A DNA stretch of 32,000 nt from Hansschlegelia plantiphila (GTDB lineage Bacteria; Pseudomonadota; Alphaproteobacteria; Rhizobiales; Methylopilaceae). The notes beneath the pieces were generated by a model. That model was given only the letters and a program-made list of their open reading frames with translations, had not been told where the DNA came from and did no database searches. The position numbers and the translations under genes were made by a program. The stretch covers positions 290,979 to 322,978 of the forward strand of contig NZ_BSFI01000007.1 of assembly GCF_027922265.1 (NCBI RefSeq), in the 5' to 3' direction. The stretch's first letter is position 1. Every line of letters starts with the position of its first letter. This document shows, one piece after another, positions 316-24,616 of this stretch.

Positions 316-3129
316 ATGACGGTCACGATCAGCTACTCGTTGCAGACCATCGGTTCGTTCGCCTATGAGTTGAACGCCCCCCAGGATACGCGACCGGACG
401 TGTGCGGGCTCACCGACGGCGCGTTCGCCGTCGCGACGGATGACGGGACCAACGTCAGGATCAAGCTGTTCAACTCCAGCGGGAGCTTGCCGAACTCCTT
501 TGGGATCGGTCCCTGCACGGAGGCGTCGCTCGCCAATGGGGGCGACGATCGTTTCATTGGCTCCGCGACCGGGGCCGACGGCTACATCACACTGTTCTCG
601 GGGACCTCCAACAGTTTCGGAGGCGGACAACGGGCGACCTCCACCAGTCTGGCCGGAACGTCGTCGCATTCCGACATCTCGGCGCAGCAGTACGTCGGAA
701 CGGTCGCGGTCGCCTGGCAGCAGGACTACTCCGCGACCGACCACGACATCTGGCTCAGCATCCACAAGAGCAGCGATCTCAGCGAGGTCAAGAGCTTCGC
801 GATCGACCAATCGGCGGCGGACGACGAGAACGCCAGCGTCGCCGTCCTGAGCGACGGCGGAATCGTGGTGGCCTGGGACCGCACCGACGCCGGCGGGCGC
901 AGCGCGATCTGGTACGCGACCTACAACGCCGACGGCTCGGTGCGGACCGCCGCGGCCGCCTATGACGACGTCGGCGACGTCAACCGCCATCCAAGCGTCG
1001 CGGCCGCCCGCGGCGGCGGCTTCACGATCAGCTACGAGGACAACGAATCCGGCGCGACGGAGGTCGCGGTCTTCGCCCGTTCGCCGGACGGCCGCACTCA
1101 GAGCTACGTGCAGGTGACGCATGGCGGCGGAGAGATCGGCGACACCGCGACGGCGGCGATCGGCCTATTTGGCGGCGTCTACGCGACGGCCTTCACGCAG
1201 AACCTGTACGACGGCGGCGAGCTGCGCGATCAGGACATCTACGTGACGCTCACCGATCCGGCGACCGGCCGGCCGCTGACCGGCGCCCCGATCCTGATCG
1301 ACGGCTCCGTCGACGTGACCCACTCGGCGACGATCGCCGCGATCCCGGGAGGACCGTTAGGCGGGCCGCGCGGAGAGTTCGTCGTCAGCTACCAGGACGA
1401 CGACGCCGGCGAGATCCACAATCGGATGATGCAGATCGTCGAGACGATCACGGGCGACAGCGCCGCCAACTTCATCCAGGGCGTGACCGGCGGCGCGATG
1501 AAGGTCAACGCCGGGAAGGGCGCCGACGTGATCAACGACAGCCCGAGCGGTGACAGCCTGTCGGGCGGCGCCGGCGACGATCGGTTCATCGACGGGCTCG
1601 GCGACGACCGCTTCGACGGCGGCGCCGACACGGACACCGTCGAGATTGTCTTCGGGAGCCCTACGACCGTCGATCTGCGCCTGACCTCGGCGCAGAACAC
1701 GGGCGTCGGCCGGGACACCTTCATCAGCATCGAGAACCTCACCGGCTCGAGCACCGTCAGCGACACCTTCACCGGCAACGACGCCGACAACGTGCTCAAC
1801 GGCGGCGGCAGGCCGCCCGGGCCCGCGGGGCATGACGTGTTCGCCGGCGGCGGCGGCGACGACACCTACATCATCGGGCAGAGCACCGACGTCGTGACGG
1901 AGGCGGCGAACGCCGGCACGGACACGGTCAAGTGCGACGACAGCTACACGCTGCCGGACAATGTCGAGAACCTGATTCTGCTGAACGACGCCTATGACGG
2001 CAGCACGGCGACCGGCAACGCGCTCGCGAACCAGATCACCGGCAACGTCTTCGCGAACGTCATCGACGGCAAGGCCGGCGCGGACACCATGGCGGGCGGC
2101 GGCGGGGCCGACACCTACACGGTGGACAACGCCGGCGACAAGGTCGTGGAGGCGAACGTCGCAGGCCCGGACCTGGTGAACTCGTCGGTGACCTTCGCGC
2201 TGGCCGGCCAGTACGTCGAGGACCTGACCCTGACCGGCTCCGGGAACATCAACGGGACCGGCAACTCGCTCAAGAACCACATCATCGGCAATAGCGGGAA
2301 TAACGTCATCGACGGCGGGACCGACGCCGACACGATGGACGGCGGCGCAGGCAACGACACCTATTACGTCCAGAACGCCGGCGACCAGGTGATAGAAGCC
2401 AACGTGACGGGCCACGACCTGGTGAAGTCGTCCGTGACGTTCTCGCTCGCGGGCCAATACGCCGAGGATCTGACCCTGACCGGGTCGGCGAAGATCAACG
2501 GCACAGGCAATTCGCTCGACAACACGCTGACCGGCAACGCCGCCGTGAACACTTTGACGGGGGCCAAGGGCGACGACGACTACTACGTCCAGAACTCCGG
2601 CGACAAGGCGATGGAGCTCGACGGGCAGGGCGACGACCGGGTGCTGAGCTCGGTGAGCTACTCGCTGGCGGGGCAGTTCATCGAGCGGCTGCGGCTGACA
2701 GGCGACGGCGACGTCAACGGGACCGGCAACTCGCTGGCGAACACGATAGCCGGCAACACCGGCGACAACGTCCTCGACGGCGGCAAGGGAACGGACCGGA
2801 TCGCGGGCGGGGCGGGGCGCGACACCTTCGTGTTCGCCAACGCGCTGGGCGCGAGCAATGTCGACGTGATCACCGACTTCAAGGCGGCGGACGACACGAT
2901 CCGGCTGGAGAACGGGGTTTTTACGGGGCTGTCGACGGGCGCGCTGGCGTCGTCGGCGTTCTACGCCGGGACCGCCGCGCACGATTCATCCGACCGCATC
3001 ATCTACGACGCCTCGACCGGCGCGCTGCTGTTCGACCGCGACGGAACCGGCGCGACCTATGCGGCGGTGCGGTTCGCGACGCTCGAGAACCACGCCGCGA
3101 TCTCGGCGGCGGATTTCACGGTGGTCTGA
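316..3129 (+). CDS. Large secreted RTX-type (hemolysin-type calcium-binding repeat) protein. It has an N-terminal six-fold repeat region, C-terminal GGxGxD nonapeptide modules, and probably a type I secretion C-terminal domain.
   Basis: ATG at 316 preceded by a G-rich RBS-like stretch, with high GC3. Repeated GGAGDDRF / GGGGDDTY / GGAGNDTYY / GGAGRDTFVF motifs. Roughly 80-aa modules ending in ...SYSLAGQ.IE.L.LTG.G..NGTGN. No N-terminal signal peptide, and an acidic D-rich C-terminus typical of T1SS substrates. Confidence 0.85.
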   Translation: MTVTISYSLQTIGSFAYELNAPQDTRPDVCGLTDGAFAVATDDGTNVRIKLFNSSGSLPNSFGIGPCTEASLANGGDDRFIGSATGADGYITLFSGTSNSFGGGQRATSTSLAGTSSHSDISAQQYVGTVAVAWQQDYSATDHDIWLSIHKSSDLSEVKSFAIDQSAADDENASVAVLSDGGIVVAWDRTDAGGRSAIWYATYNADGSVRTAAAAYDDVGDVNRHPSVAAARGGGFTISYEDNESGATEVAVFARSPDGRTQSYVQVTHGGGEIGDTATAAIGLFGGVYATAFTQNLYDGGELRDQDIYVTLTDPATGRPLTGAPILIDGSVDVTHSATIAAIPGGPLGGPRGEFVVSYQDDDAGEIHNRMMQIVETITGDSAANFIQGVTGGAMKVNAGKGADVINDSPSGDSLSGGAGDDRFIDGLGDDRFDGGADTDTVEIVFGSPTTVDLRLTSAQNTGVGRDTFISIENLTGSSTVSDTFTGNDADNVLNGGGRPPGPAGHDVFAGGGGDDTYIIGQSTDVVTEAANAGTDTVKCDDSYTLPDNVENLILLNDAYDGSTATGNALANQITGNVFANVIDGKAGADTMAGGGGADTYTVDNAGDKVVEANVAGPDLVNSSVTFALAGQYVEDLTLTGSGNINGTGNSLKNHIIGNSGNNVIDGGTDADTMDGGAGNDTYYVQNAGDQVIEANVTGHDLVKSSVTFSLAGQYAEDLTLTGSAKINGTGNSLDNTLTGNAAVNTLTGAKGDDDYYVQNSGDKAMELDGQGDDRVLSSVSYSLAGQFIERLRLTGDGDVNGTGNSLANTIAGNTGDNVLDGGKGTDRIAGGAGRDTFVFANALGASNVDVITDFKAADDTIRLENGVFTGLSTGALASSAFYAGTAAHDSSDRIIYDASTGALLFDRDGTGATYAAVRFATLENHAAISAADFTVV
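1774..2830 (+). repeat. Intragenic tandem repeat: four to five roughly 73-82-codon RTX modules with unit starts at 1774, 2014, 2260, 2506 and 2725
   Basis: Each unit starts with in-frame G-N-(S/A/D)-L/A-x-N. Periods are 240, 246, 246 and 219 nt. Units align at protein level, e.g. VVEANVAGPDLVNSSVTFALAGQYVEDLTLTGSGNINGTGNSL against VIEANVTGHDLVKSSVTFSLAGQYAEDLTLTGSAKINGTGNSL. Confidence 0.8.
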
Positions 3130-5581: not shown

Positions 5582-6877
5582 CTACGCTCTTGCGGCTTCC
5601 AACTCCTCCCGCGCGGCCTGCCTGCCGCGGCCGAACAGGAACACCGTCGCGACCAGCCCGCAGAGCGCGGCGAAGGACATCCAGAGTCCGGGCGCCGCCT
5701 TGTCGCCGGTGAGCTGGATCAGCCAGGTCGAGATCGCGAGCGAGAAGCCGCCGAGCGTGGTCGCGAGGCTGTAGGCGAGCGAGAAGCCGGACGCCCGGAT
5801 CTCCGCCGGCACGACTTCGGTGAGCGCGACCACCATCGCGCCGTTGTATCCGCCATAGAGCAGCGACAGCCATAGCTCCACGCCCAGCAGCTTCACGAAG
5901 CTCGGGTCGGACGCCAGCCACCGCAGCGACGGGTAGGCGGTGAGCAAAGTGAGGACCGTGAAGGCGATCAGGATCGGCTTGCGGCCGATGCGGTCGGAGA
6001 TCGCGCCCCAGACGGGGAGCCAGATGAAGTTCGAGATCCCGACGCAGATCGTGACGACCAGCACCAGGCTGCGGTCGAGCTTCAGCTCGTGCTCGCCGAA
6101 GGTCGGCGTGTAGGCGGTGATCAGGTAGAACGAGACGGTGGTCATCATCACCATCGCCATGCCGCCGAGCACTATCGGCCAGGCCTGCGCGAGCGTGCGG
6201 TAGACCTCGGACGTCGTGGGACGGTGGGTGCGGGCCGCGAACTCCTCCGTCTCCGCCAGCGAGCGGCGGATCACGAACAGGAACGGCACGATCGCGCAGC
6301 CGATGAAGAACGGCGCGCGCCAGCCCCAGGCGGCGAGCTGATCCGGCGCCATCATATGGCCGAGCGCAAGCCCGAGAGCAGCGGCCGCCACGGTCGCGAC
6401 CTGCTGGCTCGCCGACTGCCAGGCGACATAGAATCCCTTGTTTCCAGGCGTCGCCATCTCCGCGAGATAGACCGAGACTCCGCCGAGCTCGACGCCCGCG
6501 GAAAAGCCTTGCAGGAGGCGCCCGAGCAGCACGAGCAGCGGCGCCGCGAGCCCGATCGTGGCGTAGGCCGGCACGAAGGCGATGAGCACTGTGCCGGCGG
6601 CCATGATCGTCAACGTCAGGATCAGCCCCTTACGGCGGCCGATGCGGTCGACATAGGCGCCGAGCACGACCGCGCCGAGCGGGCGCATCAGGAAGCCCGC
6701 CCCGAAGATCACCAGGGTGAGCATCAGCGAGGCGAACTCGCTGTCCGCGGGGAAGAACGCGCCGGCGATGTATTTGGCGTAGAAGCCGTAGAGGAAGAAG
6801 TCGAACATCTCGAGGAAGTTGCCGCTCGTGACCCTGAGCACGGTCGCGATCTTCGACTGGTCCGGGCGGTTCGCCAT
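5582..6877 (-). CDS. MFS transporter, metabolite:H+ symporter (MHS) family; citrate/tricarboxylate-proton symporter-like
   Basis: N-terminus [43 protein letters not shown] resembles the CitA/CitH-type motif ([22 protein letters not shown]). Twelve hydrophobic segments and an RIGRRKG loop between TM2 and TM3. I chose the ATG at 6877; the track ORF extends to 7195 through a repeat element and non-coding DNA. Confidence 0.85.
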
Positions 6878-6979
6878 GGCGCGTTTTCCCCTCGCTGTCC
6901 GGGGACGGGAGATAGAGCGCGGGACGGGAGAGGCGACCATTGTCCCCAAGTCGCTCCCCGAGGATCCTAAAGCGCCGCC

Positions 6980-7058
6980 GTCCTCCGGCTTGACCGGAGG
7001 ACCCTCTCGGACGTCGAGTTCCGCGGCGGACATGGGTGGTCCGGTCAAGCCGGACCAC
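6980..7058. repeat. Composite palindromic intergenic repeat, family B, copy 1: hairpin gtcctccgg-cttga-ccggaggac, a roughly 33-nt core, then hairpin gtggtccgg-tcaag-ccggaccac
   Basis: Two perfect 9-bp-stem hairpins flank the core cctctcggacgtcgagttccgcggcggacatgg. The same modules recur at 10747..10890. Confidence 0.8.
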
Positions 7059-7098
7059 GACGGGCGATGACCAAAATTCCTAACTAGGAAAATAGTCA

Positions 7099-7127
7099 TT
7101 GACAGCGTGACGCTGTTCGGGTAGGGT
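7099..7127 (+). promoter_or_regulatory. Candidate sigma70-type promoter for the GTA cluster: -35 TTGACA (7099-7104), 17-nt spacer, -10 TAGGGT (7122-7127). The inverted repeat TTCCTA-AC-TAGGAA (7077-7090) lies just upstream.
   Basis: Motifs read directly in the only AT-richer stretch between the MFS gene and g1. About 40 nt upstream of the g1 ATG. No experimental support. Confidence 0.35.
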
Positions 7128-7166
7128 CCGGGCATGCTCCCAGATTGCGTCCGACACGAGGGCGGC

Positions 7167-7646
7167 ATGACCACGGATCCGAAGACCCGCCGCAAGCCGA
7201 TCGGCGAGGCGGCGCGCGAGCTCGCCCGCCGGCTCTACGAGACCTCGCTCACGCCCCAGACCGAGATCGCCGCGCGCGTCGGCGTCAGCCCGCAATCGCT
7301 CTGCCGGCTCGCGAAGAAGCACAGCTGGGAGCGCTGCTCCGGCGCGGGACGGGCGGAGACGGTGCGGCGCATAAGGGCGCGGGTCGACCAGCACATCGAA
7401 CGCGTCGAGGCCGTGCTGACCGAGACCGGCTCCGAGACCGCGGGACCGGCGATCGACGCCGCCGAGCGCGCCGCGCGGACGCTGGCGAGCCTGGTGCGGA
7501 CCCTGCGCGAACTTCAGAAATACGACGCCGACCAGGCGCGCGGGGCGACGGAGGCGGATGACGCGGATGGCGCTCCCGCCGATCTTGACGCCCTCCGCGA
7601 CGCGCTTGCGGACCGGCTTGCTCGCATCCAGGCGGCCGGGGAGTGA
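7167..7646 (+). CDS. GTA g1-like protein: putative small terminase / HTH DNA-binding protein
   Basis: Located immediately upstream of the large terminase. HTH-like segment [27 protein letters not shown] followed by a predicted helical, acidic C-terminus. ATG at 7167 has GAGGG 5-9 nt upstream; the ATG at 7134 is an alternative start. Confidence 0.5.
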
Positions 7647-8916
7647 CCAGTTCTTCGCGACTCTGTCGCGGATGGAGGTCGAATTCGTCGCGACCGACTG
7701 GACGGCGTGGTCTCGGCCCGACCAGCTGCCGCCGGAGGGCGACTGGACGACATGGCTCGTGCTCGGCGGCCGCGGGGCGGGCAAGACCCGCGCCGGCGCC
7801 GAATGGGTGCGCGGCATGGCGCTCGGCCTCAAGGGTTTTTGCGAGCGGCCGGCGGGGCGCATCGCGCTCGTCGCCGAGACCTATTCGGACCTGCGCGAGG
7901 TGATGATCGACGGCGTCTCCGGCCTGCTCGCCGTGCATCCGCGCTGGGACCGCCCGACCTACGAGCCGAGCCGGCGACGCCTGGTCTGGCGGAACGGCGC
8001 GATCGCGCACGGCTTCTCGGCCGAGGACCCGGAATCGCTGCGCGGCCCGCAGTTCGACGCCGCCTGGTGCGACGAGATCGGCAAGTGGAAATCGGCCGAG
8101 GAGACCTGGGACATGCTGCAGTTCGGACTGCGCCTCGGCCGCCTGCCGCGGCAGATCGCGACCACCACGCCGCGCGCCGCGCCGCTGCTGAAGCGCCTGC
8201 TGGCCGACCCCGCGACCGCGGTGACGCGCGCCACGACACGCGCCAACGCCGCGAACCTCGCGCCGGGCTTCCTGCAGGCGGTGGTCGGGACCTACGCCGG
8301 CACCCGGCTCGGCCGGCAGGAGCTCGACGGCGAGATGCTGGAGGACCGCGAGGACGGGTTGTGGACCCGCGCCGCGATCGACGAGGGCCGCGTGGCGGCG
8401 CCGCCGGAGCTTCGCCGCATCGTCGTTGCGGTCGATCCGCCGGCAGGAGGAATAAAATCCGACGCCTGCGGTCTGGTGGCCGTCGGCCTCGGAACCGACG
8501 GCCGGGCCTATGTGCTGGCCGACGAGACGCTGCACGCCACGCGCCCCGAGGTCTGGGCGTCGCGCGCCGCGGCGCTGTGGCGGCGGCTGGAGGCCGACGC
8601 GCTGGTGGCGGAAGTCAACCAGGGCGGCGACATGGTGCGCGCCGTGATCGGGCAGGCCGACCCGGAGATCCCGGTGCTCGCTGTCCGCGCCACCCGCGGC
8701 AAGTGGCTCCGCGCCGAGCCGGTCGCCGCGCTCTATGCGCAGGGGAGGGTCGCCCATGTCGGCGTCCACCGCGCGCTCGAGGACGAGATGATGGCCTTCG
8801 GCCTCGACGGCCTCGCAGACGGCCGCTCCCCCGACCGCGTCGACGCGCTGGTCTGGGCGGTGACGCACCTGATGCTCGGCTCGAAGGGCAGGGGGCCGCG
8901 GGTGCTGGGACTTTGA
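7558..8916 (+). CDS. GTA g2: terminase large subunit
   Basis: Walker A LVLGGRGAGKTRAGAEW preceded by DW..WSRPDQLPPEGDW. Further motifs WCDEIGKW and VAVDPP...DACGLV, the latter nuclease-domain-like. Start is uncertain (ATG 7558/7567 overlapping g1, or ATG 7672). The conserved-looking ATLSRME segment lies upstream of 7672, which favours an upstream start. Confidence 0.9.
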   Translation: MTRMALPPILTPSATRLRTGLLASRRPGSDQFFATLSRMEVEFVATDWTAWSRPDQLPPEGDWTTWLVLGGRGAGKTRAGAEWVRGMALGLKGFCERPAGRIALVAETYSDLREVMIDGVSGLLAVHPRWDRPTYEPSRRRLVWRNGAIAHGFSAEDPESLRGPQFDAAWCDEIGKWKSAEETWDMLQFGLRLGRLPRQIATTTPRAAPLLKRLLADPATAVTRATTRANAANLAPGFLQAVVGTYAGTRLGRQELDGEMLEDREDGLWTRAAIDEGRVAAPPELRRIVVAVDPPAGGIKSDACGLVAVGLGTDGRAYVLADETLHATRPEVWASRAAALWRRLEADALVAEVNQGGDMVRAVIGQADPEIPVLAVRATRGKWLRAEPVAALYAQGRVAHVGVHRALEDEMMAFGLDGLADGRSPDRVDALVWAVTHLMLGSKGRGPRVLGL

Positions 8917-8922
8917 GAACGG

Positions 8923-9447
8923 CTAGCGCGCCAGGTTCGGCGTGAACTCGTCAAAATTCCGGGCCGCGTCAGCGGCGGTTGGGGCTGAGCTCGCTATGCT
9001 CACTCGTATGTTCTGCGTGATTTGAAACATTCCGCTCCGCCAATAGGTTTTTACATGCGTCGCGCCGTCGACGGTCTCGAAAGACGCGAAGGTGCGCAGC
9101 CAACCCTCGTGGGATGTTTTCTGGGACTGAGCGATCAGGCGGAACGAACCGCCGCTCGCCTTATATCCTTGATCGATCCGTTTCAGATTGAATGTCTGGT
9201 CAACAATACCGGACGGTTCGACGCCGATGCTCACCACAGAACCAGGCCGACAGGGCGCCGCCATGCATTCGAAGTAAATGTTCTTGGATCCGGGGACTGC
9301 TTTTCTGCGCCAGCCCGGGTGTAGCTTTGCAAAGTCGGGCCTCGCGGCCTTGCCGGCGGATGATTGACCCGGTGAGTTCTCTGCCGCCGCCAGGCCGGGG
9401 AATGTCAAGATTGCAAGGCCGATCGCGGCCCAGAGCAATACACGCAT
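8923..9447 (-). CDS. Hypothetical secreted protein (signal peptide) with no recognisable family; lower-GC insert antisense to the GTA genes
   Basis: MRVLLWAAIGLAILTFPGLAAA|EN looks like a Sec signal. Codon usage differs from the neighbours, with many A/T-ending codons (gta, ttg, aca, caa, tca, aaa, ata, att). The stop is convergent with the terminase stop, 6 nt apart. Confidence 0.65.
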   Translation of the reverse strand: MRVLLWAAIGLAILTFPGLAAAENSPGQSSAGKAARPDFAKLHPGWRRKAVPGSKNIYFECMAAPCRPGSVVSIGVEPSGIVDQTFNLKRIDQGYKASGGSFRLIAQSQKTSHEGWLRTFASFETVDGATHVKTYWRSGMFQITQNIRVSIASSAPTAADAARNFDEFTPNLAR

Positions 9448-9520
9448 AGCCGCCCCGTACGATGGCTGAGCGAATCCTCAGTAGCGAGCCTGCCGCCGCG
9501 CGGTTGTTTCGTCTACGTCC

Positions 9521-9545
9521 GCCGGGCCCTCGCGCCCGGCTTTTT
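9521..9545 (+). terminator. Rho-independent terminator-like hairpin (gccgggc-cctcgc-gcccggc + TTTTT) 18 nt upstream of the portal ATG
   Basis: Perfect 7-bp all-GC stem, 6-nt loop, then five T. Only the + strand carries the T-tract. Confidence 0.6.
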
Positions 9546-9562
9546 CATTCCGCGAGGGCTCC

Positions 9563-10735
9563 ATGGCCTCCATGCTCTCCCGCCTCTTCGCCCGCGCGCC
9601 GGCGAAGAAGTCCTCCGCGCTCGGTGCGCTCGTCGCATTGCATGGCGGCGGGATGGCGGCCTGGACGGCGCGCGATCCCGTCAGCCTCGCCCACGAGGGC
9701 TACCAGCGGAACCCGGTCGTGCATCGCGCGGTGCGGATGGTGGCGGAGGCGGCGGGCGGCGTGCCGCTGGTGCTGACGGAAGGGGAGCGCGAGCTCGACG
9801 AGCACCCGCTGCTCGCGCTGCTCGCCCGGCCGAACGCGCGGCAGGGCAAAGCGGGGCTGATCGAGACGCTGGTCTCGCACCTGCTGCTGTCGGGCGACGC
9901 CTATGTCGAGGCGGTCGCCGTCGACGGCGAGCCGCGCGAGCTGCATGTGCTGCGGCCCGACCGGATGCGCGTGCTGGCGGACTCGAGCGGATGGCCGGAG
10001 GCCTACGAATACCGCTGCGGCGCGGAGGTCGCGCGCTACGACCAGCGCGCGGAGCCCTGTCCGCCGCTCCTGCATCTCACCTTGTTCCACCCGCTCGACG
10101 ATCATTACGGCCTGAGCCCGCTGGAGCCCGCGGCGCAAGCCGTGGATCTGCACAATGCGGCCTCCGCCTGGAACAAGGCGTTGCTCGACAACGCGGCGCG
10201 GCCCTCCGGCGCGCTGATCTACAAGGGGCCGGACGGGGCGGGACTGACCGACGATCAGGTCGAGCGGCTGAAGAGCGAGCTCGAGGCGCAATTCTCGGGC
10301 GCCGCCAACGCCGGCCGCCCGCTGCTGCTCGACGGCGGCCTCGACTGGCGGCCGATGGCGCTGACCCCTCAGGAGATGGATTTTCTGGAGGCGAAGAACG
10401 CGGCCGCCCGCGACATCGCGCTCGCCTTCGGCGTGCCGCCGATGCTGCTCGGCATTCCGGGCGATGCGACCTACGCCAATTATTCGGAGGCGAACCGCGC
10501 GCTGTGGCGCCAGACCGCGCTGCCGCTGCTGTCGCGCGTCGCCCAGTCGCTCGCGGGCTGGCTGGCGCCGGCCTGGGGCCCCGAGCTTGCGCTCAAGCCC
10601 GATCTCGACGCGGTCGAGGCGCTCTCCGGCGAACGCGAGGCGCTGTGGCGCCGCGTGACCGCCGCGACCTTCCTCGACGACGACGAGAAGCGCGCGGCGG
10701 TGGGGTATCAGCCGAGGGGCGCCGCTGGAGCATAA
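9563..10735 (+). CDS. GTA g3: portal protein (HK97 family)
   Basis: 390 aa. Typical portal motifs include YQRNPVVHRAVRMVAEAAGGVPL, HPLLALLARPN, LLLSGDAYVE, LSPLEPA...AWNKALLDN, FGVPPMLLGIPGD.TYANY.EA.RALW. Position follows the terminase. Confidence 0.9.
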   Translation: MASMLSRLFARAPAKKSSALGALVALHGGGMAAWTARDPVSLAHEGYQRNPVVHRAVRMVAEAAGGVPLVLTEGERELDEHPLLALLARPNARQGKAGLIETLVSHLLLSGDAYVEAVAVDGEPRELHVLRPDRMRVLADSSGWPEAYEYRCGAEVARYDQRAEPCPPLLHLTLFHPLDDHYGLSPLEPAAQAVDLHNAASAWNKALLDNAARPSGALIYKGPDGAGLTDDQVERLKSELEAQFSGAANAGRPLLLDGGLDWRPMALTPQEMDFLEAKNAAARDIALAFGVPPMLLGIPGDATYANYSEANRALWRQTALPLLSRVAQSLAGWLAPAWGPELALKPDLDAVEALSGEREALWRRVTAATFLDDDEKRAAVGYQPRGAAGA

Positions 10736-10746
10736 AGCGCGCCGTC

Positions 10747-10890
10747 GTGGTCCGGCTTGACCGGACCACCCATCCCGGACGTCGAGCTCCGCGTCGAACA
10801 TGGGTCCTCCGGAAACTCGGGTGTTCCCGAGTTTCCCTTCCGACCAGCTCAGATCGGCAGCAGCCGATCTGAGTTCGCAGGCCGGAGGAC
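10747..10890. repeat. Family B palindromic repeat, copy 2. Two further hairpins are nested in the loop of its second hairpin: aaactcggg-tgtt-cccgagttt at 10813-10834 and ctcagatcggc-agca-gccgatctgag at 10848-10873.
   Basis: gtggtccgg-cttga-ccggaccac (10747-10769), core ccatcccggacgtcgagctccgcgtcgaacatgg, then gtcctccgg (10804-10812) pairing with ccggaggac (10882-10890) across a 69-nt insert. Confidence 0.75.
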
Positions 10891-10935
10891 GACGAGTTTC
10901 ATTCTGTAGCCGCCGACGTCTCTCCACTTCTCAGG

Positions 10936-11565
10936 ATGCAGCGCATGCCTCACCCCATCGTCAGGGCGCGCGGCGACGCGCCTGAACTGAAGCGGCTGCC
11001 TGTCGCGCCGGCGGTTTCCGCCGACGGGCTGGTCGAGGGCTACGCCAGTCTGTTCGGCGTCGTCGATCTCGGCCGCGACCGGGTCGAGCGCGGCGCCTTC
11101 GCCGGCAGCCTCGCCCGGCGGGGCGCGCGCGGCGTGCGGTTCCTGTTCCAGCACGATCCGGCCGAGCCGATCGGGGCGTGGCTCTCGATCGCCGAGGATT
11201 CGCGGGGGCTTCGCGTCGCCGGACGGCTGAACCTCGCGGTGACGCGGGCCCGCGAGGTCCACGCGCTGCTCCGCCAGGGCGGGCTCGACGGCCTGTCGAT
11301 CGGTTTCCGGGCGGTCAGGACCGCGCGCGAGGGCGCCGGCGTCCGGCGCCTCGTCGAGATCGACCTCTGGGAGATCTCGGTCGTCACCTTCCCGATGCTC
11401 CCTGACGCCCGCGTCGCCGCGGTCAAGCGCGGGCCTCTACACCTCTCCCCGGTGGGGAGAGGTCGGCCCGCAGGGCCGGGTGAGGGGACGCTTCGCTTGT
11501 CGAGCGCCCGCCCCCTCACCCGCTCGGCTTTCGCCTCGCGACCTCTCCCCACCGGGGAGAGGTGA
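10936..11565 (+). CDS. GTA g4: prohead maturation protease (HK97 family, S78-like); 3' end runs into a repeat element
   Basis: GYASLFGVVDLGRDRVERGAF, FLFQHDP.EPIG.W, GLSIGF and LWEISVVTFPMLPDARV are typical of the family. ATG 10945 (AGGA 8 nt upstream) is an alternative start. The last ~40 codons lie in repeat 11441-11563. Confidence 0.85.
   Translation: MQRMPHPIVRARGDAPELKRLPVAPAVSADGLVEGYASLFGVVDLGRDRVERGAFAGSLARRGARGVRFLFQHDPAEPIGAWLSIAEDSRGLRVAGRLNLAVTRAREVHALLRQGGLDGLSIGFRAVRTAREGAGVRRLVEIDLWEISVVTFPMLPDARVAAVKRGPLHLSPVGRGRPAGPGEGTLRLSSARPLTRSAFASRPLPTGER
11441..11563. repeat. Composite palindromic repeat, family A, copy 1: hairpin acctctcccc-ggt-ggggagaggt, then gggtgagggg...cccctcaccc, then hairpin acctctcccc-acc-ggggagaggt
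   Basis: 10-bp perfect stems at 11441-11463 and 11541-11563. The central inverted repeat is 11478-11487 / 11512-11521. The same modules recur at 14517..14639. Confidence 0.8.
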
Positions 11566-11629
11566 AGACCCGCGCCTCCTTCTTCATCCTCCCGCCGCCT
11601 CAGCGCGGCCTTTTCGCCAGAGGCCTCCG

Positions 11630-12898
11630 ATGACCCAGACCGAACTCCGCTCGCCCGAGACCAAGGCCGCCGAGGGCGCGCCGTCGAGCCTCGAGGTGGT
11701 GACCGCCTTCGACGACTTCATGCGCGCCTTCGACGCGTTCAAGGAGGTCAACGACGAGCGCCTCGCCGAGATCGAGGCGAGGCTGACGCCCGACGTCGTC
11801 ACCGTCGAGAAGCTCGCCCGGCTCGACGACGCGCTCGACCGCCAGCAGAAGGTTCTGGCGGATCTCACGCTGAAGGGCCGCCGGCCCGCGCTGGAGACCG
11901 CCGGAACCCGCGAGACGGCCGCGCCGCGCGAGCACAAGGCGGCGTTCGAGGCCTATGTCCGGCGCGGCGAGGTGTCGACGCTGAAGAGCCTGGAATCCAA
12001 GGCGCTCGCCTCGGTCACGGACTCGCAAGGAGGCTATCTCGTGCCGGAAGCCACCGAGCGCGAGATCGGGCGCCGGTTGGCGGAGGTCTCGCCGATCCGC
12101 GCCATCGCCTCGGTGCAGCAGGTGACGGCCGCCGTCTACCGCAAGCCGTTCGCGACCGAGGGCTTCGCCTCCGGCTGGGCGGCGGAGACGGGCGCCCGCG
12201 CGCAGTCCGCGACGCCGGTGCTGGACGAACTCGCCTTCCCCGCGATGGAGCTGTTCGCGATGCCGGCGGCGACCCAGACGCTGCTCGACGACTCCGCCGT
12301 CGACCTCGACCGCTGGATCGCAGAGGAGGTCGAGACCGCCTTCGCCGAGCAGGAGAGCGCGGCCTTCGTCACCGGCGACGGGACCACGCGGCCGCAGGGC
12401 TTCCTGACGCCGGCCAAGGTCGCGAACGCGGCCTGGGTCTGGGGCAAGATCGGCTATGTCGCGACCGGGGCTGCGGGCGCCTTCGCGGCCTCGAACCCCT
12501 CCGACAGCCTGCTCGATCTGGTCTATGCGCTGCGCTCGGGCTATCGCCGCAACGCCAGCTTCGTGATGAACCGGCGCGTGCAGGCGGCGGTGCGCAAGCT
12601 GAAGGACGCCGACGGCCGCTATCTCTGGGAGCCGCCGGCAAGCGCCGACTCGAGCGCCACGCTGATCGGCTTCCCCGTGGTGGAGGCGGAGGCCGCGCCC
12701 GACATCGCGGACGGCGCCCACGCCATTTCCTTCGGCGACTTCCGCCGCGGCTATCTGGTCGTCGACCGCATCGGGGTGCGCATCCTGCGCGACCCGTTCA
12801 CGGCGAAGCCCTACGTGCTGTTCTACACCACCAAGCGGGTCGGCGGCGGCGTGCAGGACTTCGACGCCATCAAGACGCTGAAGTTCGCGACGAGCTGA
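11630..12898 (+). CDS. GTA g5: major capsid protein (HK97 fold family)
   Basis: 422 aa. N-terminal coiled-coil/delta-like segment (FKEVNDERLAEIEARL...), then GGYLVPE, PVLDELAFPAMELFAMPAATQTLLDDS, FVTGDGT.RPQGFL, GFPVVEAE. The ATG at 11630 follows the repeat; the track start at 11480 lies inside the repeat. Confidence 0.9.
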   Translation: MTQTELRSPETKAAEGAPSSLEVVTAFDDFMRAFDAFKEVNDERLAEIEARLTPDVVTVEKLARLDDALDRQQKVLADLTLKGRRPALETAGTRETAAPREHKAAFEAYVRRGEVSTLKSLESKALASVTDSQGGYLVPEATEREIGRRLAEVSPIRAIASVQQVTAAVYRKPFATEGFASGWAAETGARAQSATPVLDELAFPAMELFAMPAATQTLLDDSAVDLDRWIAEEVETAFAEQESAAFVTGDGTTRPQGFLTPAKVANAAWVWGKIGYVATGAAGAFAASNPSDSLLDLVYALRSGYRRNASFVMNRRVQAAVRKLKDADGRYLWEPPASADSSATLIGFPVVEAEAAPDIADGAHAISFGDFRRGYLVVDRIGVRILRDPFTAKPYVLFYTTKRVGGGVQDFDAIKTLKFATS

Positions 12899-13160
12899 CC
12901 AGTTCTCCCGCCTCCTGCCGCGGCCGGCGCTTCCCCAGGCGTTCTGCTGCGGCGGGAAAGAAACAGGTGAGTGGTATTCCAGCGCCGCCCTTGATCGTAA
13001 CGACCCGTTAACGATCCGGGGGCACGCTCGTCCCAGCCGTTCCTGACATGGCGCGGCTTCGGCGGTTCGCGAGGCGTCCCTCGATCGCGGACCGTCGGAG
13101 ACTTTCTCCGCATTCTCCCCCCGGAGCGGGCCTCTTCGGCTTTCTTCCGTCCTATCGCCT

Positions 13161-13196
13161 AAAGCCCGCCCGACATCCGTCCGGCGGGCTTTTTTT
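13161..13196 (+). terminator. Strong Rho-independent terminator (aaagcccgcc - 12-nt loop - ggcgggcttt + T-run) 21 nt upstream of the g6 ATG
   Basis: Perfect 10-bp stem (13161-13170 / 13183-13192) and a run of 7 T (13190-13196). The minus-strand reading has no comparable T-tract. Confidence 0.75.
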
Positions 13197-13217
13197 CGTC
13201 CGCGCGAGGTCTCTCCC

Positions 13218-13751
13218 ATGCCTGCCGTGCTGCTGACCGCGCCCGAGGCCGAACCGATCGGCCTCGGCGACGCGAAGGCCTATCTGCGCCTCGAACACGA
13301 CGCCGAGGACGACCTGGTCGCGGGCCTGATCGCCGCCGCCGCGCGGCAGGTGGAGAACATCACCCGCCGGGTGCTGATCGCGCAGCGCTGGCGGCTCGAC
13401 GCCAGGCTGCCCTGCGACGCCTCCGGGATCGCGCTCCGGCCGCGCCCGGTGCGCGAGGTCGAGGCGGTTCGGATCATGCTTCCGGACGGATCGTTCGAGA
13501 CGCTCGACCCCGCCGACTGGCGCTTCGACTGGGGGGCGGAGCGGCTTTACGTGACGAAGCCGGCGCCGGCGGGCCGCGGAATCCAGGTCGACCTCGCGGT
13601 CGGCTATGGCGATCCGGAGGACGTGCCGGAATCGCTCAGGCTCGCGGTGCGCAGGCTGGTCGCCGACGGCTTCGAACGCCGCGGCGCCGGCGACGGGGCG
13701 CCCGCCGACGTCACGGCGCTGCTCGCGCCCTACCGGGACTTTTCGCTTTGA
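13218..13751 (+). CDS. GTA g6: head-tail connector (gp6-like, DNA-packaging/adaptor family)
   Basis: Position after the capsid gene. N-terminal ...AKAYLRLEHDAEDDLVAGLIAAAR..VE..T.R.LI.Q.W motif is typical of phage gp6-like head-tail connectors. GAGG RBS 8 nt upstream. Confidence 0.8.
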   Translation: MPAVLLTAPEAEPIGLGDAKAYLRLEHDAEDDLVAGLIAAAARQVENITRRVLIAQRWRLDARLPCDASGIALRPRPVREVEAVRIMLPDGSFETLDPADWRFDWGAERLYVTKPAPAGRGIQVDLAVGYGDPEDVPESLRLAVRRLVADGFERRGAGDGAPADVTALLAPYRDFSL

Positions 13752-18289: not shown

Positions 18290-21200
18290 ATGGCCGTTCT
18301 CGCCCTCACAGCCGTCGGCGCCGCGGTGGGCGGGGCGATCCTGCCGGGCGGGATCGGGCTGTTCGGCGCGACGCTTTCGGGAGCGGCCCTCGGCGGCGCG
18401 CTCGGCGGGCTGGCGGGCGCCGCGATCGACCAGTCGCTGCTGACGCCGACCCAGAAGCAGACCGGCCCGCGCCTCACCGACATCCGCATCACCGCCTCGA
18501 CCGAGGGGGCGCCCGTGATGCGCGTCTACGGCCGGATGCGGGTCGGCGGCCAGGTGATCTGGGCGAGCCGGTTCCGCGAGACCAAGTCGACCGAGGCGAG
18601 CGGCGGCAAGGGCGGCGGGCCGAAGGTCAAGTCCACGACCTACGCCTATTCCGCGAGCTTCGCGGTCGGGCTCTGCGAGGGCCCGATAGACGCCATCGGC
18701 CGCGTCTGGGCGGACGGCGAGCCGATCGCCAGGGGCGACTACGAGATCCGCCTCTATCGGGGGACGGAGGACCAGCTTCCCGATCCCAAGATCGTCGCCG
18801 TCGAGGGCGAGGACTATGCGCCGGCCTATCGCGGCCTCGCCTATCTCGTCTTCGAGGAGCTGCCGCTCGAGCCCTTCGGCAACCGCGTGCCGCAGATCAC
18901 GGTCGAGGTGATCCGCCGGCCGCCCTCGGCGAAGCCGCAGCTCGAGGACCTCGTCTCCGGCGTCACGCTGATCCCCGGCTCCTCGGAGTTCGCCTATGCG
19001 ACCGACGTGATCGAGCGCAACGCCGGCTTCGGCGCCTGGGAGGCGGAGAACGCCCACGTCGCCGACGGTCGCGCCGACATGCTGACGGCGCTCGACGACC
19101 TCGCGGCGCTTGCGCCGAACGCCGCCCACGTTTCGCTGGTGATCGCCTGGCACGGGACGGATCTCCGCGCCGGCCACTGCGAGATCGTCCCGAAGGTCGA
19201 GACCGACGACAAGAAGACCCGGCCGTGGATCTGGCGCGTCGCAGGGCAGAACCGAACGCAGGTTCCGCTCGTCAGCCGGATCGACGGCGCCCCCGCGCTC
19301 GGCGGCGCGCCGGCGGATCGCGCGGTCCATCAGGCGATTGCGGAGCTCAAGGCCCGCGGGCTGAAGGTGATGCTGAACCCGTTCATCCTCATGGATGTTC
19401 CGGCCGGGAACGCGCTGCCCGATCCCCATGGCGGGGCGGAGCAGGCGGCCTATCCCTGGCGGGGCCGCATCACCTGCCACCCCGCGCCGGGGCGTCCCGG
19501 ATCGCTAGACAGGACGGCTGCGGCCGCGGCTGACATCGACGCCTTCTTCGGCTTCGCGGCGCCGGGGGACTTCGGCTGGAACGAGACCAGCCGCAGCGTC
19601 TCCTATGAGGGCCCGCAGGAGTGGTCCTACCGCCGCTTCGTGCTGCACATGGCGCGCGTCGCGCAGGCGGCCGGCGGCGTCGACGCGTTCCTGATCGGCT
19701 CGGAGATGGTCGGCCTGACGCGGCTGCGCGACGCGACGGGGAGCTACCCGGCGGTCGCCAGGCTCCGGGAGCTTGCGGCCGACGTGCGCGCCATGCTCGG
19801 GCCGGAGGCGCGGATCGGCTATGCGGCGGACTGGAGCGAATACTCAAACCACCGGCCGGACGACGGCTCGGGCGACGTGATCTTCCACCTCGACCCGCTC
19901 TGGGCCGACGACAACATCGATTTCGTCGGGATCGACAACTACGTCCCGCTCGCCGACTGGCGCGACGGGCCGGGCCATCTCGACGCCGCGGCCGGTTTCC
20001 GGGGACCGCACGACGTCGCCTATCTCGACGCCAACATCGAGGGCGGCGAGGGGTTCGACTGGTTCTATGCGGACGCGGCCGCCCGCGAGGCGCAGATCCG
20101 CACGCCGATCGTCGACACCGCGCATGGCGAGCACTGGGCGTTCCGTTTCAAGGACTTCCGGTCGTGGTGGGAGAACCCGCACCACGATTGGCCGGGCGGC
20201 GCCCGGCTCCCGACGCCCACAGCATGGGTCCCGCAGTCCAAGCCCATCGTGTTCTGCGAGCTCGGCTGCCCCGCGGTCGACAAGGGCGCGAACCAGCCGA
20301 ACGTGTTCGTCGACCCGAAATCGGCGGAGTCCGCCGTTCCCTACTTCTCGAACGGGCGGCGGGACGATCTCGTCCAGCGCGCGGCGCTGGTCGCGCAGAT
20401 CTCGCATTGGAGCGCCGCCGGGAACAACCCGCTCTCCGCCCTGACCGGCGAGCGGATGATCGACGTCTCGCGCATCTTCCTCTGGACCTGGGACGCCCGT
20501 CCGCATGCGGCGTTCCCGCTGCGCAGCGACGTCTGGACGGACTCCGCGAACTGGCGGCTCGGCCACTGGCTGACCGGGCGGCTGGGGCTCGCCGCGCTTG
20601 CCGACGTCGTCGCCGACATCGCCGGCGAGCTGGGCGTCGACCTCGACCTCGACGACCTCGAGGGGCTGGTGCGCGGCTACGCGCCGGACCGGGTGATGAG
20701 CGCGCGCGAGGCGATCGAGCCGCTGCTCGACGCCTATGGCGCGACGGCGCGGGCGAGCGGGGCGACACTTCGCGTCTCCAACCGGCCGGAGACGCCGGTG
20801 GCTGAGCTGGCGCCGGAGGATCTCGCCGATCTCGGCGAGAAGACGCCGGCCTTCCGGCTGACTCGCGCGCAGGCCTCCGAAGTGCCGCAGACGCTGCAGC
20901 TTCGCCACGTCGACCCCGACGCTGACTACCGTCAGGGCGCGGTCGAGGCGCGTCGGCTGGCGGGCGAGGGCAGGGCGGTCGCGGAAGCGTCCTTCGCGCT
21001 GGCGCTTGGCGTCGACGAGGCGCAGGCGCTCGCCGACGGCATGCTGATCGAGGCGTCCGTCGCGCGCGAGCGGGGCGAATGGGCGCTGCCTCCGAGCAGG
21101 CTCGCCCTCGAGCCCGGCGACCTCGTGACGTTCTCCGCGCACGGCCGCACGCTGCTGATGCGGCTCGACCAGGTCGGCGAGGAGTTTGCGCGCCCGGTGA

Positions 21201-22219
21201 AGGCGACCCGCGCCGACCCGGACGTGCGCGACGTCGAACTGGTCGTGATCGACCGCCGTCCGCCGCCGGACCCGGCGCGCGCCGTGGCGCCCGTCTTCGA
21301 GGTTCTGGACCTGCCGCTGCTCGCAGGCGACGAGCCGCCTCATGCGCCGCGGCTCGCAGCCTACGCGAAACCCTGGACGCCGGCGGCCGTCTACCGCTCG
21401 GAGGAGGGCGGGACTTTCGCGCTGGACCAGACGCTGCCGTCGCCCGCCGCCATCGGCCGGCTGACCGCGCCGCTCGGGCTCCACGCCAGCGGCCGCTTCG
21501 ACCGGGCGAACGCGATCGAGGTCGAGATCGGGCCGGACCGCACGCTCGAGAGCCGCAGCGAGAGCGCGGTGCTCGGCGGCGCCAACGTCTGCGCCGTGCG
21601 CGGAACGTCGGGCGCGTGGGAGGTGGTCCAGTTCCTCGACGCCGAGCTCGTCGGGCCGGGCCGCTGGCGGCTGACGGGCCTGCTGCGCGGCCAGGCCGGC
21701 ACGGAGGATGCGATCGGCGCGGATGTGGACGCCGCCTTCGTGCTGATCGACGACCGCACGCCGTCCGCGACCCTGCTCGCCTCGACGCGAGGCCTCGACA
21801 TCGTCTGGCGGGCCGGACCTGCGACCCGGCCGCGCGACGACGAGACCTATGTCGAGACCACGGCGGAAGTCGGCGCGCGCGGGTTGAGGCCTTATGCGCC
21901 CGTCCACTTGTCGGCGCGGCGCGACCCGCTGACCGGAGACGTCCCGCTGGGCTGGGTCCGCCGGACCCGGCTCGGCGGCGACGACTTCGAGATCCGCGAC
22001 GTCCGGCTGGGCGAAGACAGCGAGGCCTACGAGGTCGCGGTGCTGGCGGATGGACAGGTCGTGCGGACGTTCGAGGCGTCGGCGCCGCATATTGTGTACC
22101 TGCACGCGCAACAGATCGCGGATTTCGGCCTGGAGCCGGCGACGATCGCCTTCACCGTCCGGCAGCTCTCCGCCTCGGTCGGGCCGGGCCTGCCGGCCGG
22201 CGCCGAGATCGCCGTGTAG
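18290..22219 (+). CDS. GTA g15: host-specificity / central tail fibre protein (GTA TIM-barrel-like domain plus phage-tail domains)
   Basis: 1309 aa. Gly/Ala-rich N-terminus, then TGPRL.D..ITASTEGAP...VYGR.R.GGQ.IWA, YRG.AY.VFE.L.L..FGNR.PQ...EV, GYAADWSEY and F.GIDNY.PL.DWRD. Follows g14, as in RcGTA. Confidence 0.9.
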   Translation: MAVLALTAVGAAVGGAILPGGIGLFGATLSGAALGGALGGLAGAAIDQSLLTPTQKQTGPRLTDIRITASTEGAPVMRVYGRMRVGGQVIWASRFRETKSTEASGGKGGGPKVKSTTYAYSASFAVGLCEGPIDAIGRVWADGEPIARGDYEIRLYRGTEDQLPDPKIVAVEGEDYAPAYRGLAYLVFEELPLEPFGNRVPQITVEVIRRPPSAKPQLEDLVSGVTLIPGSSEFAYATDVIERNAGFGAWEAENAHVADGRADMLTALDDLAALAPNAAHVSLVIAWHGTDLRAGHCEIVPKVETDDKKTRPWIWRVAGQNRTQVPLVSRIDGAPALGGAPADRAVHQAIAELKARGLKVMLNPFILMDVPAGNALPDPHGGAEQAAYPWRGRITCHPAPGRPGSLDRTAAAAADIDAFFGFAAPGDFGWNETSRSVSYEGPQEWSYRRFVLHMARVAQAAGGVDAFLIGSEMVGLTRLRDATGSYPAVARLRELAADVRAMLGPEARIGYAADWSEYSNHRPDDGSGDVIFHLDPLWADDNIDFVGIDNYVPLADWRDGPGHLDAAAGFRGPHDVAYLDANIEGGEGFDWFYADAAAREAQIRTPIVDTAHGEHWAFRFKDFRSWWENPHHDWPGGARLPTPTAWVPQSKPIVFCELGCPAVDKGANQPNVFVDPKSAESAVPYFSNGRRDDLVQRAALVAQISHWSAAGNNPLSALTGERMIDVSRIFLWTWDARPHAAFPLRSDVWTDSANWRLGHWLTGRLGLAALADVVADIAGELGVDLDLDDLEGLVRGYAPDRVMSAREAIEPLLDAYGATARASGATLRVSNRPETPVAELAPEDLADLGEKTPAFRLTRAQASEVPQTLQLRHVDPDADYRQGAVEARRLAGEGRAVAEASFALALGVDEAQALADGMLIEASVARERGEWALPPSRLALEPGDLVTFSAHGRTLLMRLDQVGEEFARPVKATRADPDVRDVELVVIDRRPPPDPARAVAPVFEVLDLPLLAGDEPPHAPRLAAYAKPWTPAAVYRSEEGGTFALDQTLPSPAAIGRLTAPLGLHASGRFDRANAIEVEIGPDRTLESRSESAVLGGANVCAVRGTSGAWEVVQFLDAELVGPGRWRLTGLLRGQAGTEDAIGADVDAAFVLIDDRTPSATLLASTRGLDIVWRAGPATRPRDDETYVETTAEVGARGLRPYAPVHLSARRDPLTGDVPLGWVRRTRLGGDDFEIRDVRLGEDSEAYEVAVLADGQVVRTFEASAPHIVYLHAQQIADFGLEPATIAFTVRQLSASVGPGLPAGAEIAV

Positions 22220-22241: not shown

Positions 22242-22348
22242 GTCCCGGCCTTGAGCTGGAACCCAGAACCGTGATCCGCGCGCGGACCGCGGGCTGCGCC
22301 TTGTCCTGCGTCGTCCGTGCGCCCGGGTCCCGGCTCAAAGGCCGGGAC
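22242..22348. repeat. Possible third palindromic intergenic element: gtcccggccttgagc ... gctcaaaggccgggac, including the local hairpin gtcccggc-tcaaag-gccgggac at 22327-22348
   Basis: Long-range inverted repeat 22242-22256 / 22333-22348, with the GC palindrome ccgcgcgcgg in between. Only one copy is visible in this window. Confidence 0.4.
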
Positions 22349-22390
22349 AGGCGCGCGCTTCCCCAAGTCTCGATACGCCTGGAGCATCCC

Positions 22391-23872: not shown

Positions 23873-23923
23873 GGCAGCGGGCCCGCACGGGCGCGGCCAT
23901 TTTCGAACATCCGGAGACATCCC

Positions 23924-24616
23924 ATGAACGTGCTGGACATCCAGCGGCGGCTGCTCGCGCTCGGGCATAATCCGGGCCCGCTCGACGGCGTCTGGGGACG
24001 CCGCACGCGGCTCGCCGTCGTCGCCTTCCAGAAATCGGTCGGCCTTGACGCCGACGGCGTCGTCGGGCCCCTGACGACGGCCGCGCTGCTCGACCGGCCG
24101 GGAACGGCCAAGGCTACGGCCGTCCCCGTGGCTCCGCCCTGGCTTTCCGAAGCGCGCCGCTTCATGGGGCTGAAGGAAATCGCGGGGCCGGCCTCCAACC
24201 CGCAGATCCTCGAATGGGGACGGCGGGTGGCGGAGTGGTACGTCAACGACGACGTCCCGTGGTGCGGTGTGTTCGTCCACGCGATGATCGCCGCGGCGCT
24301 GCCCGAAGAGACGCTGATCGCGAACCCCTGCTACGCGCGCGGCTGGGCGAGGTTCGGCGTCGCGCTGGCGGCGCCGGCGGCCGGCGCGATCCTCGTGTTC
24401 GAGCGCGGGCCGAACGCCGGCCATGTCGGCTTCTACGTCGGCGAGGATTCCGGCCGGTTCCGCGTGCTCGGCGGCAACCAGTCCAACAGCGTGTCCGAAG
24501 CCTGGGTCGCCAAGGCCAGGCTCCTCGCCATCCGATGGCCGAAGACCGCGCCCCGCCCGTCCACCGGCGCGGTCGCCGTCTCCGCCGCCGGCTCCGTCTC
24601 CACCAACGAAGCTTGA
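23924..24616 (+). CDS. Peptidoglycan-binding domain (PG_binding_1) plus TIGR02594-like (CHAP/NlpC-like) cell-wall hydrolase; putative endolysin
   Basis: IQRRLLALGHNPGPLDGVWGRRTRLAVVAFQKSVGLDADGVVGPLT is a PG-binding repeat. PWLSEARRFMGLKEIAG.ASNPQILEW, WCG.FV and GHVGFYVGED..RFRVLGGNQSN.V are the TIGR02594 pattern. GGAGA RBS. Confidence 0.8.
   Translation: MNVLDIQRRLLALGHNPGPLDGVWGRRTRLAVVAFQKSVGLDADGVVGPLTTAALLDRPGTAKATAVPVAPPWLSEARRFMGLKEIAGPASNPQILEWGRRVAEWYVNDDVPWCGVFVHAMIAAALPEETLIANPCYARGWARFGVALAAPAAGAILVFERGPNAGHVGFYVGEDSGRFRVLGGNQSNSVSEAWVAKARLLAIRWPKTAPRPSTGAVAVSAAGSVSTNEA

Follow-up and report, generated by a model that had tools for sequence, protein, structure and literature searches.

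The subject of this analysis is a gene transfer agent (GTA) cluster in a 32-kb stretch of the Hansschlegelia plantiphila genome (contig NZ_BSFI01000007.1, positions 290,979 to 322,978), which is referred to as a whole as the window. On basis of Pfam and NCBIfam matches, the window holds a complete head-tail cluster of the RcGTA type; the original prediction had also taken it for a GTA. Between the genes for the large terminase (g2) and the portal protein (g3) of this cluster lies an interval of 646 bp (8917-9562), which contains an open reading frame (ORF) of 174 amino acids on the opposite strand, here named ORF174. The original prediction, made from the sequence letters, had regarded this ORF as a horizontally acquired, moron-like gene for a secreted protein that breaks up an otherwise tight operon. 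Its descriptive part was confirmed and its interpretation was partly supported, as outlined below. The elements around the interval are the following:

7558-8916, plus strand: GTA large terminase (g2), left border of the slot; matches to Terminase_6N (8.9e-29) and Terminase_6C (8.1e-19)
8917-9520, no strand: lineage-specific segment of about 604 bp, with no DNA match in related loci
8923-9447, minus strand: ORF174, 174 amino acids with an ATG start, from the ORF call
9382-9447, minus strand: part of ORF174 that codes for the signal peptide MRVLLWAAIGLAILTFPGLAAA, with predicted cleavage before ENS, as read from the sequence
9448-9520, no strand: region 5' of ORF174, the expected location of a promoter, in which none was recognized
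9521-9548 (hairpin 9521-9540), plus strand: terminator-like hairpin, right border of the slot; GCCGGGC-CCTCGC-GCCCGGC, then TTTTTCAT
9563-10735, plus strand: GTA portal protein (g3) of the HK97 type; matches to Phage_portal (1.5e-87) and TIGR01537 portal_HK97 (2.4e-66)

The terminase gene and ORF174 converge, and their stops are indeed 6 nt apart: the TGA of the terminase (8914-8916) is followed by the spacer GAACGG and by the TAG of ORF174 on the minus strand (8923-8925), which makes the plus strand read TGA-GAACGG-CTA. The NCBI annotation of ORF174 is 'hypothetical protein' of Hansschlegelia plantiphila, and its product is identical to GLK67899.1 / WP_271168142.1. The composition of ORF174 deviates clearly from that of its neighbors. 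Its GC content is 0.592 (GC1 0.56, GC2 0.53, GC3 0.686), compared to 0.739 for the terminase gene, and GC3 amounts to 0.92 in the terminase and 0.91 in the portal gene; codons that end in A or T make up 31.6% of ORF174 versus 7.5-9% of the flanking genes. In a sliding comparison ORF174 proved to be the stretch of 525 bp with the lowest GC content of the entire 32 kb (z = -3.6, with 0.14% of the sliding windows equally low). The codon adaptation to the GTA genes was 0.36, versus 0.70-0.84 in eight of the nine other scored genes and 0.56 in the ninth (28427-30667). The segment as a whole (8917-9520) has a GC content of 0.601 versus 0.733 in the flanking genes, and 525 of its 604 unique bp are taken up by ORF174.

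The N-terminus of ORF174 reads MRVLLWAAIGLAILTFPGLAAA followed by ENS, and residues 1-22 form a predicted Sec signal peptide with a cleavage site after LAAA, as the original prediction had it. All three parts expected of a signal peptidase I substrate (n-, h- and c-region) can be recognized with a simple heuristic: the sequence starts with Met-Arg, thus one basic residue, continues with a hydrophobic core of 20 residues (mean Kyte-Doolittle value 2.09) and ends in Ala-Ala-Ala at positions -3 to -1 with Glu at +1; there is no lipobox cysteine. The same heuristic was passed by only two of the 96 ORFs of at least 100 amino acids within the window. The product is therefore, as far as can be read from the sequence, very probably exported. 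The predicted mature protein has 152 residues (16.5 kDa, pI 9.8) and contains Cys61 and Cys66, such that one CxxxxC disulphide is possible. Low-confidence AlphaFold2 models, obtained from the single sequence, consist mostly of beta strands with a C-terminal helix, and the mature protein would be basic and probably beta-rich. The pLDDT values were 45.8 for the full protein and 40.6 for the mature domain; low values are expected for single-sequence predictions and say little either way.

The original prediction had recognized no family for the protein, and the database searches came to the same outcome. No family match was obtained in Pfam, even at E = 10, or in NCBIfam, and no match at E <= 1 in PHROGs or PADLOC. 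In a word-indexed search of 5.8e9 proteins ORF174 retrieved itself alone, and no homolog was found among PDB sequences, plasmids, phages, metagenome contigs or viral contigs. An exhaustive phmmer search of 1.84e9 cluster representatives recovered ORF174 itself and five long tandem-repeat proteins; inspection of the sequences showed the latter to be artefacts, with scores summed over 4-24 short stretches. A phmmer search of all PDB chains at E <= 10 yielded five unrelated chains, and a Foldseek search of the PDB with the low-confidence model yielded nothing at E <= 0.001, with TM-scores of about 0.2. Judged by these searches, ORF174 is a species-specific orphan without a recognizable family. 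In this respect it resembles other taxonomically restricted (orphan) genes, being without homologs among billions of proteins, short, deviant in GC content and located in a hotspot of gene turnover; it differs from them in location alone, inside a GTA head module.

To place the insertion, 80 related loci were fetched with a terminase probe, taking one genome per species, nearly all of them Hyphomicrobiales (positions in these loci are given below as locus:position). A tblastn search with ORF174 gave no match at E <= 1e-3 in this set and only chance matches up to E = 50, and a blastn search with 8917-9520 gave short chance matches only. No ortholog of ORF174 was present at the same position in any of the 80 loci, with host-like composition or otherwise, and the alternative that the gene is an ancestral member of the cluster was thus not borne out. 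The DNA homology to the Hansschlegelia and Methylopila loci ends at 8907-8916, at the terminase stop; for H. quercus it restarts at 9521, for Methylopila at about 9554-9628. The stretch 8917-9520 therefore represents a discrete segment of one species. No direct or inverted repeats were found to flank 8917-9520, and neither the insert nor the ORFs on either side of the junction include a transposase or integrase. The absence from all 80 related loci, the deviant composition and codon usage and the lack of a family support the proposed recent, horizontal acquisition.

The assumption that g2 is normally followed directly by g3 turned out to be wrong for the Hyphomicrobiales. The distance between terminase and portal gene could be taken in 71 of the related clusters, and the spacing was compared to that at two other junctions:

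g1-g2 junction, n = 24: median -85 bp (overlap); longer than 400 bp in 1, longer than 1 kb in 1
g2-g3 junction, n = 71: median 204 bp; longer than 400 bp in 29, longer than 1 kb in 22
g4-g5 junction, n = 50: median about 0 bp; longer than 400 bp in 5, longer than 1 kb in 2

In many of the clusters terminase and portal gene are 25-130 bp apart (219 bp in M. jiangsuensis), and the longest interval measured 5.5 kb. The junction between g3 and g4 came second in variability (median 488 bp, longer than 1 kb in 15 of 58); in the window it comprises 200 bp (10736-10935) with a somewhat lower GC content of about 0.66. Published definitions of GTA clusters permit up to 5-8 kb between adjacent genes (PMC6821227), and the GTA literature that was searched does not treat the g2-g3 junction as a hotspot. 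The ORFs within the slot point in both directions (32 plus, 26 minus), and the GC content of the gap is more than 5 points below that of the flanks in 9 of 29 cases, with the gap of the window (-12 points) among the most deviant. The identity of the cargo differs strongly between lineages:

H. quercus (L001:7511-7947), sense strand: HicB-like (DUF1902) and HicA toxin-antitoxin pair
Bauldia, metagenome-assembled genome (L049): aldo-keto reductase (AKR) and an RHH/PIN pair
Nitrobacter (L046): GIY-YIG, with fragments in L076
L016:7354-7689 and L079:7284-7661: low-GC DUF6968 genes, with fragments in L071:7364-7530
Kaistia: bestrophin-like protein and GGDEF
L071: ABM monooxygenase
Methylopila: small exported proteins and DUF1236
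Breoghania: small exported protein family

The g2-g3 junction is thus a recurrent variable slot of the RcGTA-type clusters of the Hyphomicrobiales, filled with unrelated cargo in each lineage. DUF6968 (Pfam E about 1e-32; GC content about 0.50 versus 0.68 in the flanks) recurs directly 3' of the terminase gene in unrelated clusters, and a further copy is found elsewhere in a GTA cluster (L060:6965-7276); it may represent a family with a recurring association with GTA clusters. In Breoghania a different antisense gene for an exported protein of about 105 residues is present in the slot throughout the genus (L006:8135-8458, L007:7858-8148, L009:4105-4416; 60-74% identity); the protein starts with MFRKTAI, has a middle part rich in Tyr, Arg and Asp and ends in GYRTVCR.

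Nor is an antisense gene for an exported protein new to the slot in this lineage. In Methylopila sp., M. musalis and M. turkensis an antisense gene for a protein of 111-135 residues ends 0-13 nt from the terminase stop. The protein has a signal peptide, a middle part rich in Gly and Ser and a conserved C-terminus (…ENxADDPSxNQGI…), its gene has a host-like GC3 of 0.80-0.92, and no Pfam match was found for the family. The terminase most similar to that of the window (90% identity) is encoded by H. beijingensis, the closest relative, of which the contig breaks 65 bp past the terminase stop. The antisense reading of this remnant, …GASEGAADDPSLNAGIDRR*, has a stop that abuts the terminase stop, and the end of the fragment, '…AADDPSLNAGIDRR*', matches the C-termini of the Methylopila proteins, '…ADDPSLNQGIYRDP…', with 72% identity to M. 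musalis over 18 residues. As tblastn searches without composition correction were swamped by low-complexity noise, only strong matches within the same slot were kept. The members of this antisense exported family in Methylopila and H. beijingensis, all directly 3' of the terminase stop, are:

L002:7373-7780, antisense
L004:7352-7687, antisense
L005:7360-7707, antisense
L052:1099-1164, antisense

The simplest history that fits these sequences is that the slot was occupied by an antisense gene for an exported protein as early as the common ancestor of Hansschlegelia and Methylopila. H. plantiphila probably exchanged this occupant for ORF174 after its split from H. beijingensis, H. quercus would have exchanged it for hicBA, and M. 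jiangsuensis, with its gap of 219 bp, would have lost it. Considering the fact that sister taxa carry a different antisense exported-protein gene, the insertion would therefore have replaced a previous occupant and not have broken up an untouched operon.

The right border of the slot is formed by the hairpin at 9521-9540, which has seven G-C pairs and a loop of 6 nt and is located 22 nt before the ATG of the portal gene. With a free energy of -16.2 kcal/mol (z = -3.6) it is the best terminator-like site in 6800-13300. The hairpin is identical base for base in H. quercus, where it is preceded by hicA, and it is therefore part of the conserved border and not of ORF174. Of the 71 loci, 11 have a terminator-like site in the last 200 nt before the portal gene, compared to 11 of 280 control coding stretches; 10 of these 11 loci bear cargo at the junction, and the idea that the backbone universally carries a terminator in front of the portal gene was rejected. 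In the transcript, an alternative stem of 11 bp (9524-9561; GGGCCCUCGCG with CGCGAGGGCUC, -21.1 kcal/mol) is a competitor of the terminator hairpin, and the Shine-Dalgarno sequence GAGGG of the portal gene would be masked by it. Since its pairing is not conserved in H. quercus, it may be fortuitous.

A comparable arrangement has been described for Caulobacter crescentus, the single organism in which this junction has been studied; here the genes for the large terminase (gtaT, CCNA_02880) and the portal protein (gtaP, CCNA_02877) are separated by gtaQS, four IHF sites and terGTA (PMC11150451). The active GTA of this organism thus also contradicts the presumed adjacency of g2 and g3. terGTA is a strong terminator immediately downstream of gtaT and is passed only by GafZ-modified RNA polymerase (PMC11150451; PMC9632790). 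Both in Caulobacter and in the window, extra DNA and a sense-strand terminator element thus precede the portal gene at the very same junction. The two differ in that terGTA is made up of three GC-rich repeats of 150 bp, whereas Hansschlegelia has a single 7-bp G-C hairpin with a T-run, and in that the intervening genes of Caulobacter are members of its cluster; ORF174, by contrast, lies antisense, has a foreign composition and is found in one species only. Anti-termination has been demonstrated in Caulobacter and is proposed for Hansschlegelia by analogy. With such a mechanism in Hansschlegelia, a processive, terminator-resistant polymerase would also read through 600 bp of antisense cargo, which would explain how insertions build up at this junction without loss of the GTA.

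Taking the above together, we favor, with a probability of roughly 60%, that 8917-9520 is a recent lineage-specific cassette with ORF174 as a passenger, and the current occupant of a recurrent cargo slot. The cassette, which carries one gene, would have been acquired recently into the slot that runs from the stop codon of the terminase gene to the portal gene, where ORF174 most likely displaced the earlier antisense exported-protein gene that is still found in H. beijingensis and Methylopila. The protein would carry a Sec signal peptide that directs it to the periplasm or envelope and is then cut off, leaving a product of about 16.5 kDa; it would be cargo and not a part of the GTA. The cargo would be tolerated because the GTA genes further downstream are transcribed either by a polymerase that resists terminators, as in Caulobacter, or from a start of their own.

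Several observations weigh against this scenario. An ORF of the length of ORF174 arose in 2.5% of the mononucleotide shuffles of the gap (P = 0.025), and the length alone is therefore weak evidence for a gene. No sigma-70-like promoter was recognized in 6800-13300, although the scan used a crude consensus that alphaproteobacterial promoters may escape, and the sole Shine-Dalgarno-like sequence before ORF174 is weak (…ACGGGGCGGCT-ATG). ORF174, which has no homolog with which its selection could be gauged, could be inert. With respect to the proposed replacement, a profile of the three Methylopila sequences retrieved nothing at E <= 0.01 from a large protein database, probably because these proteins are short and of low complexity, and the replacement scenario depends on only about 20 H. 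beijingensis residues at the end of a contig. Most of these points, together with the low pLDDT of both structure predictions (46 and 41), would fit as well with ORF174 being non-functional, the segment then being foreign DNA in decay that has kept, by chance or for the time being, a long ORF that begins with a hydrophobic stretch. Yet the signal peptide is complete, well formed, located at the first ATG and of a kind that is rare in the window, and ORF174 fills most of the segment; the order GC3 > GC1 > GC2 fits a coding frame and, like the signal peptide, adds to the coding evidence. We consider an inert ORF unlikely.

ORF174 could also belong, as a highly diverged member, to the alphaproteobacterial IalB (invasion associated locus B) family of exported beta-sandwich proteins, in line with the name 'Invasion associated locus B family protein' that is attached to UniRef100_A0A9W6MUZ0. 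IalB has been described as having a mass of 19.9 kDa, a signal peptide and a fold of 11 strands and 2 helices (PMC6299047), and ORF174 is alike in size (about 19 kDa), signal peptide, alphaproteobacterial host and a mature domain that is probably beta-rich, with one or two helices in the low-confidence prediction. It differs from the family (PF06776; 3DTD) in that it lacks any sequence-level match to the Pfam model, even in a Pfam-A hmmscan at E = 10, or to NCBIfam, and the solved IalB structure 3DTD was absent from the PDB sequence matches at E <= 10. The poor model retrieved no IalB structure with Foldseek, NCBI names the protein hypothetical, and, of the 133 ORFs with a signal peptide in the fetched loci, none looked suitable by eye as a seed for the IalB family. 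As every sequence test that was run gave no match, the UniRef label is unsupported and may be a machine-generated guess; we consider membership of the family quite improbable. The original prediction had also thought of a functional tie to the GTA, such as recipient exclusion or receptor masking: an exported protein might modify or mask an envelope receptor or capsule and thereby alter the adsorption or uptake of GTA particles by the producer or its kin. The position inside the head module is all that speaks directly for it, next to the fact that sister taxa and Breoghania keep other exported-protein genes in the slot, but other cargo is unrelated to envelopes (toxin-antitoxin, GIY-YIG, GGDEF, AKR, methyltransferase), ORF174 occurs in one species without a PHROG, PADLOC or phage sequence match, and a gene on the opposite strand is less likely to be expressed together with the GTA operon; such an accessory role is very unlikely. 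We consider it even less probable that the insert is mainly regulatory, with transcription of ORF174 converging on the 3' end of the terminase gene and the hairpin before g3 together dampening or gating the structural genes of the GTA. The stops are close, no minus-strand terminator was found after ORF174 in a scan of 6800-13300, a strong sense-strand hairpin precedes the portal gene and the alternative stem could cover the portal Shine-Dalgarno sequence; on the other hand, the hairpin is independent of ORF174 given its presence in H. quercus next to sense-strand cargo, that stem is confined to H. plantiphila of the two, and there is no sign of strong transcription of ORF174. Also quite improbable is the idea that the junction is no random breakpoint but a dedicated cargo slot beside a terminator that is overridden by GTA-specific anti-termination, with occupants that are switched on or antisense-silenced at the moment a cell turns to lytic GTA production. 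In that case the level of ORF174, as an orphan envelope protein, would follow GTA induction, for instance through silencing by operon read-through in producers.

The passenger cassette that we favor resembles a phage moron in part. Phage morons are independently transcribed extra genes between conserved genes of the structural modules of tailed phages, and classical morons carry their own promoter and terminator. Like these, ORF174 is a single small gene of deviant composition that sits precisely between two head-module genes that are adjacent in relatives, is absent from close relatives, and occupies a slot that is filled differently per lineage. It differs in being antisense, in having no recognized promoter or terminator and in its host element, which is a domesticated GTA of the RcGTA type and not a transmissible phage or prophage. 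The term 'moron-like' thus holds for the insertion and its composition, and not for carriage by a phage. GTAs are not known to package their own genes preferentially. Since the genes of a domesticated GTA are not themselves packaged or transferred, the cargo has no means of spreading in the particles, which leaves ordinary chromosomal recombination as its way of arrival.

Within the cluster, the genes g2 (terminase), g3 (portal), g4 (protease), g5 (capsid) and g11-g15 including the megatron are co-linear, with matches to terminase, portal_HK97, proheadase_HK97, major_cap_HK97, RcGTA_tape, TIGR02217, TIGR02218, TIGR02219 and, at 1768 bits, GTA_megatron. The genes g6-g15 are contiguous, and 8917-9562 is the sole interruption of the cluster. 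The other genes are:

7134-7646: g1-like ORF
10936-11565: prohead protease
ending at 12898: major capsid protein
13218-13751: head-tail connector
followed by the tape measure, distal tail, hub and NlpC peptidase genes (Pfam and NCBIfam matches), up to the megatron
18290-22219: megatron protein of 1309 residues

Directly 3' of the megatron gene (22271-24616) a DUF2793 and glycine-rich, tail-fibre-like protein and an enzyme with PG_binding_1 and CHAP domains are encoded, and with them adsorption and lysis functions seem to have been added to the GTA cluster. The gap of 319 bp 3' of the major capsid gene (12899-13217) contains two terminator-like hairpins on the sense strand (13121-13139 and 13176-13188), at the usual location of an attenuator downstream of a capsid gene. 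Upstream of the cluster, a protein of 937 residues with RTX calcium-binding repeats is encoded (316-3129) in a part of the window with a lower GC content (0.66-0.69).

Taken alone, ORF174 is one more species-specific orphan gene, and its insertion is real and not exceptional. Of broader interest is that domesticated GTAs often turn over cargo at their g2-g3 junction, toxin-antitoxin modules and exported proteins included, which makes strict g2-g3 adjacency unsafe as a criterion in GTA annotation. The pattern of the slot, more than ORF174, may deserve attention. The cargo junction coincides with the site of the Caulobacter GTA terminator that needs anti-termination. If the link between the slot and anti-termination is true, it would explain how a "tight operon" tolerates insertions, antisense ones included, and would provide a simple comparative handle on the regulation of GTAs beyond the two model organisms.

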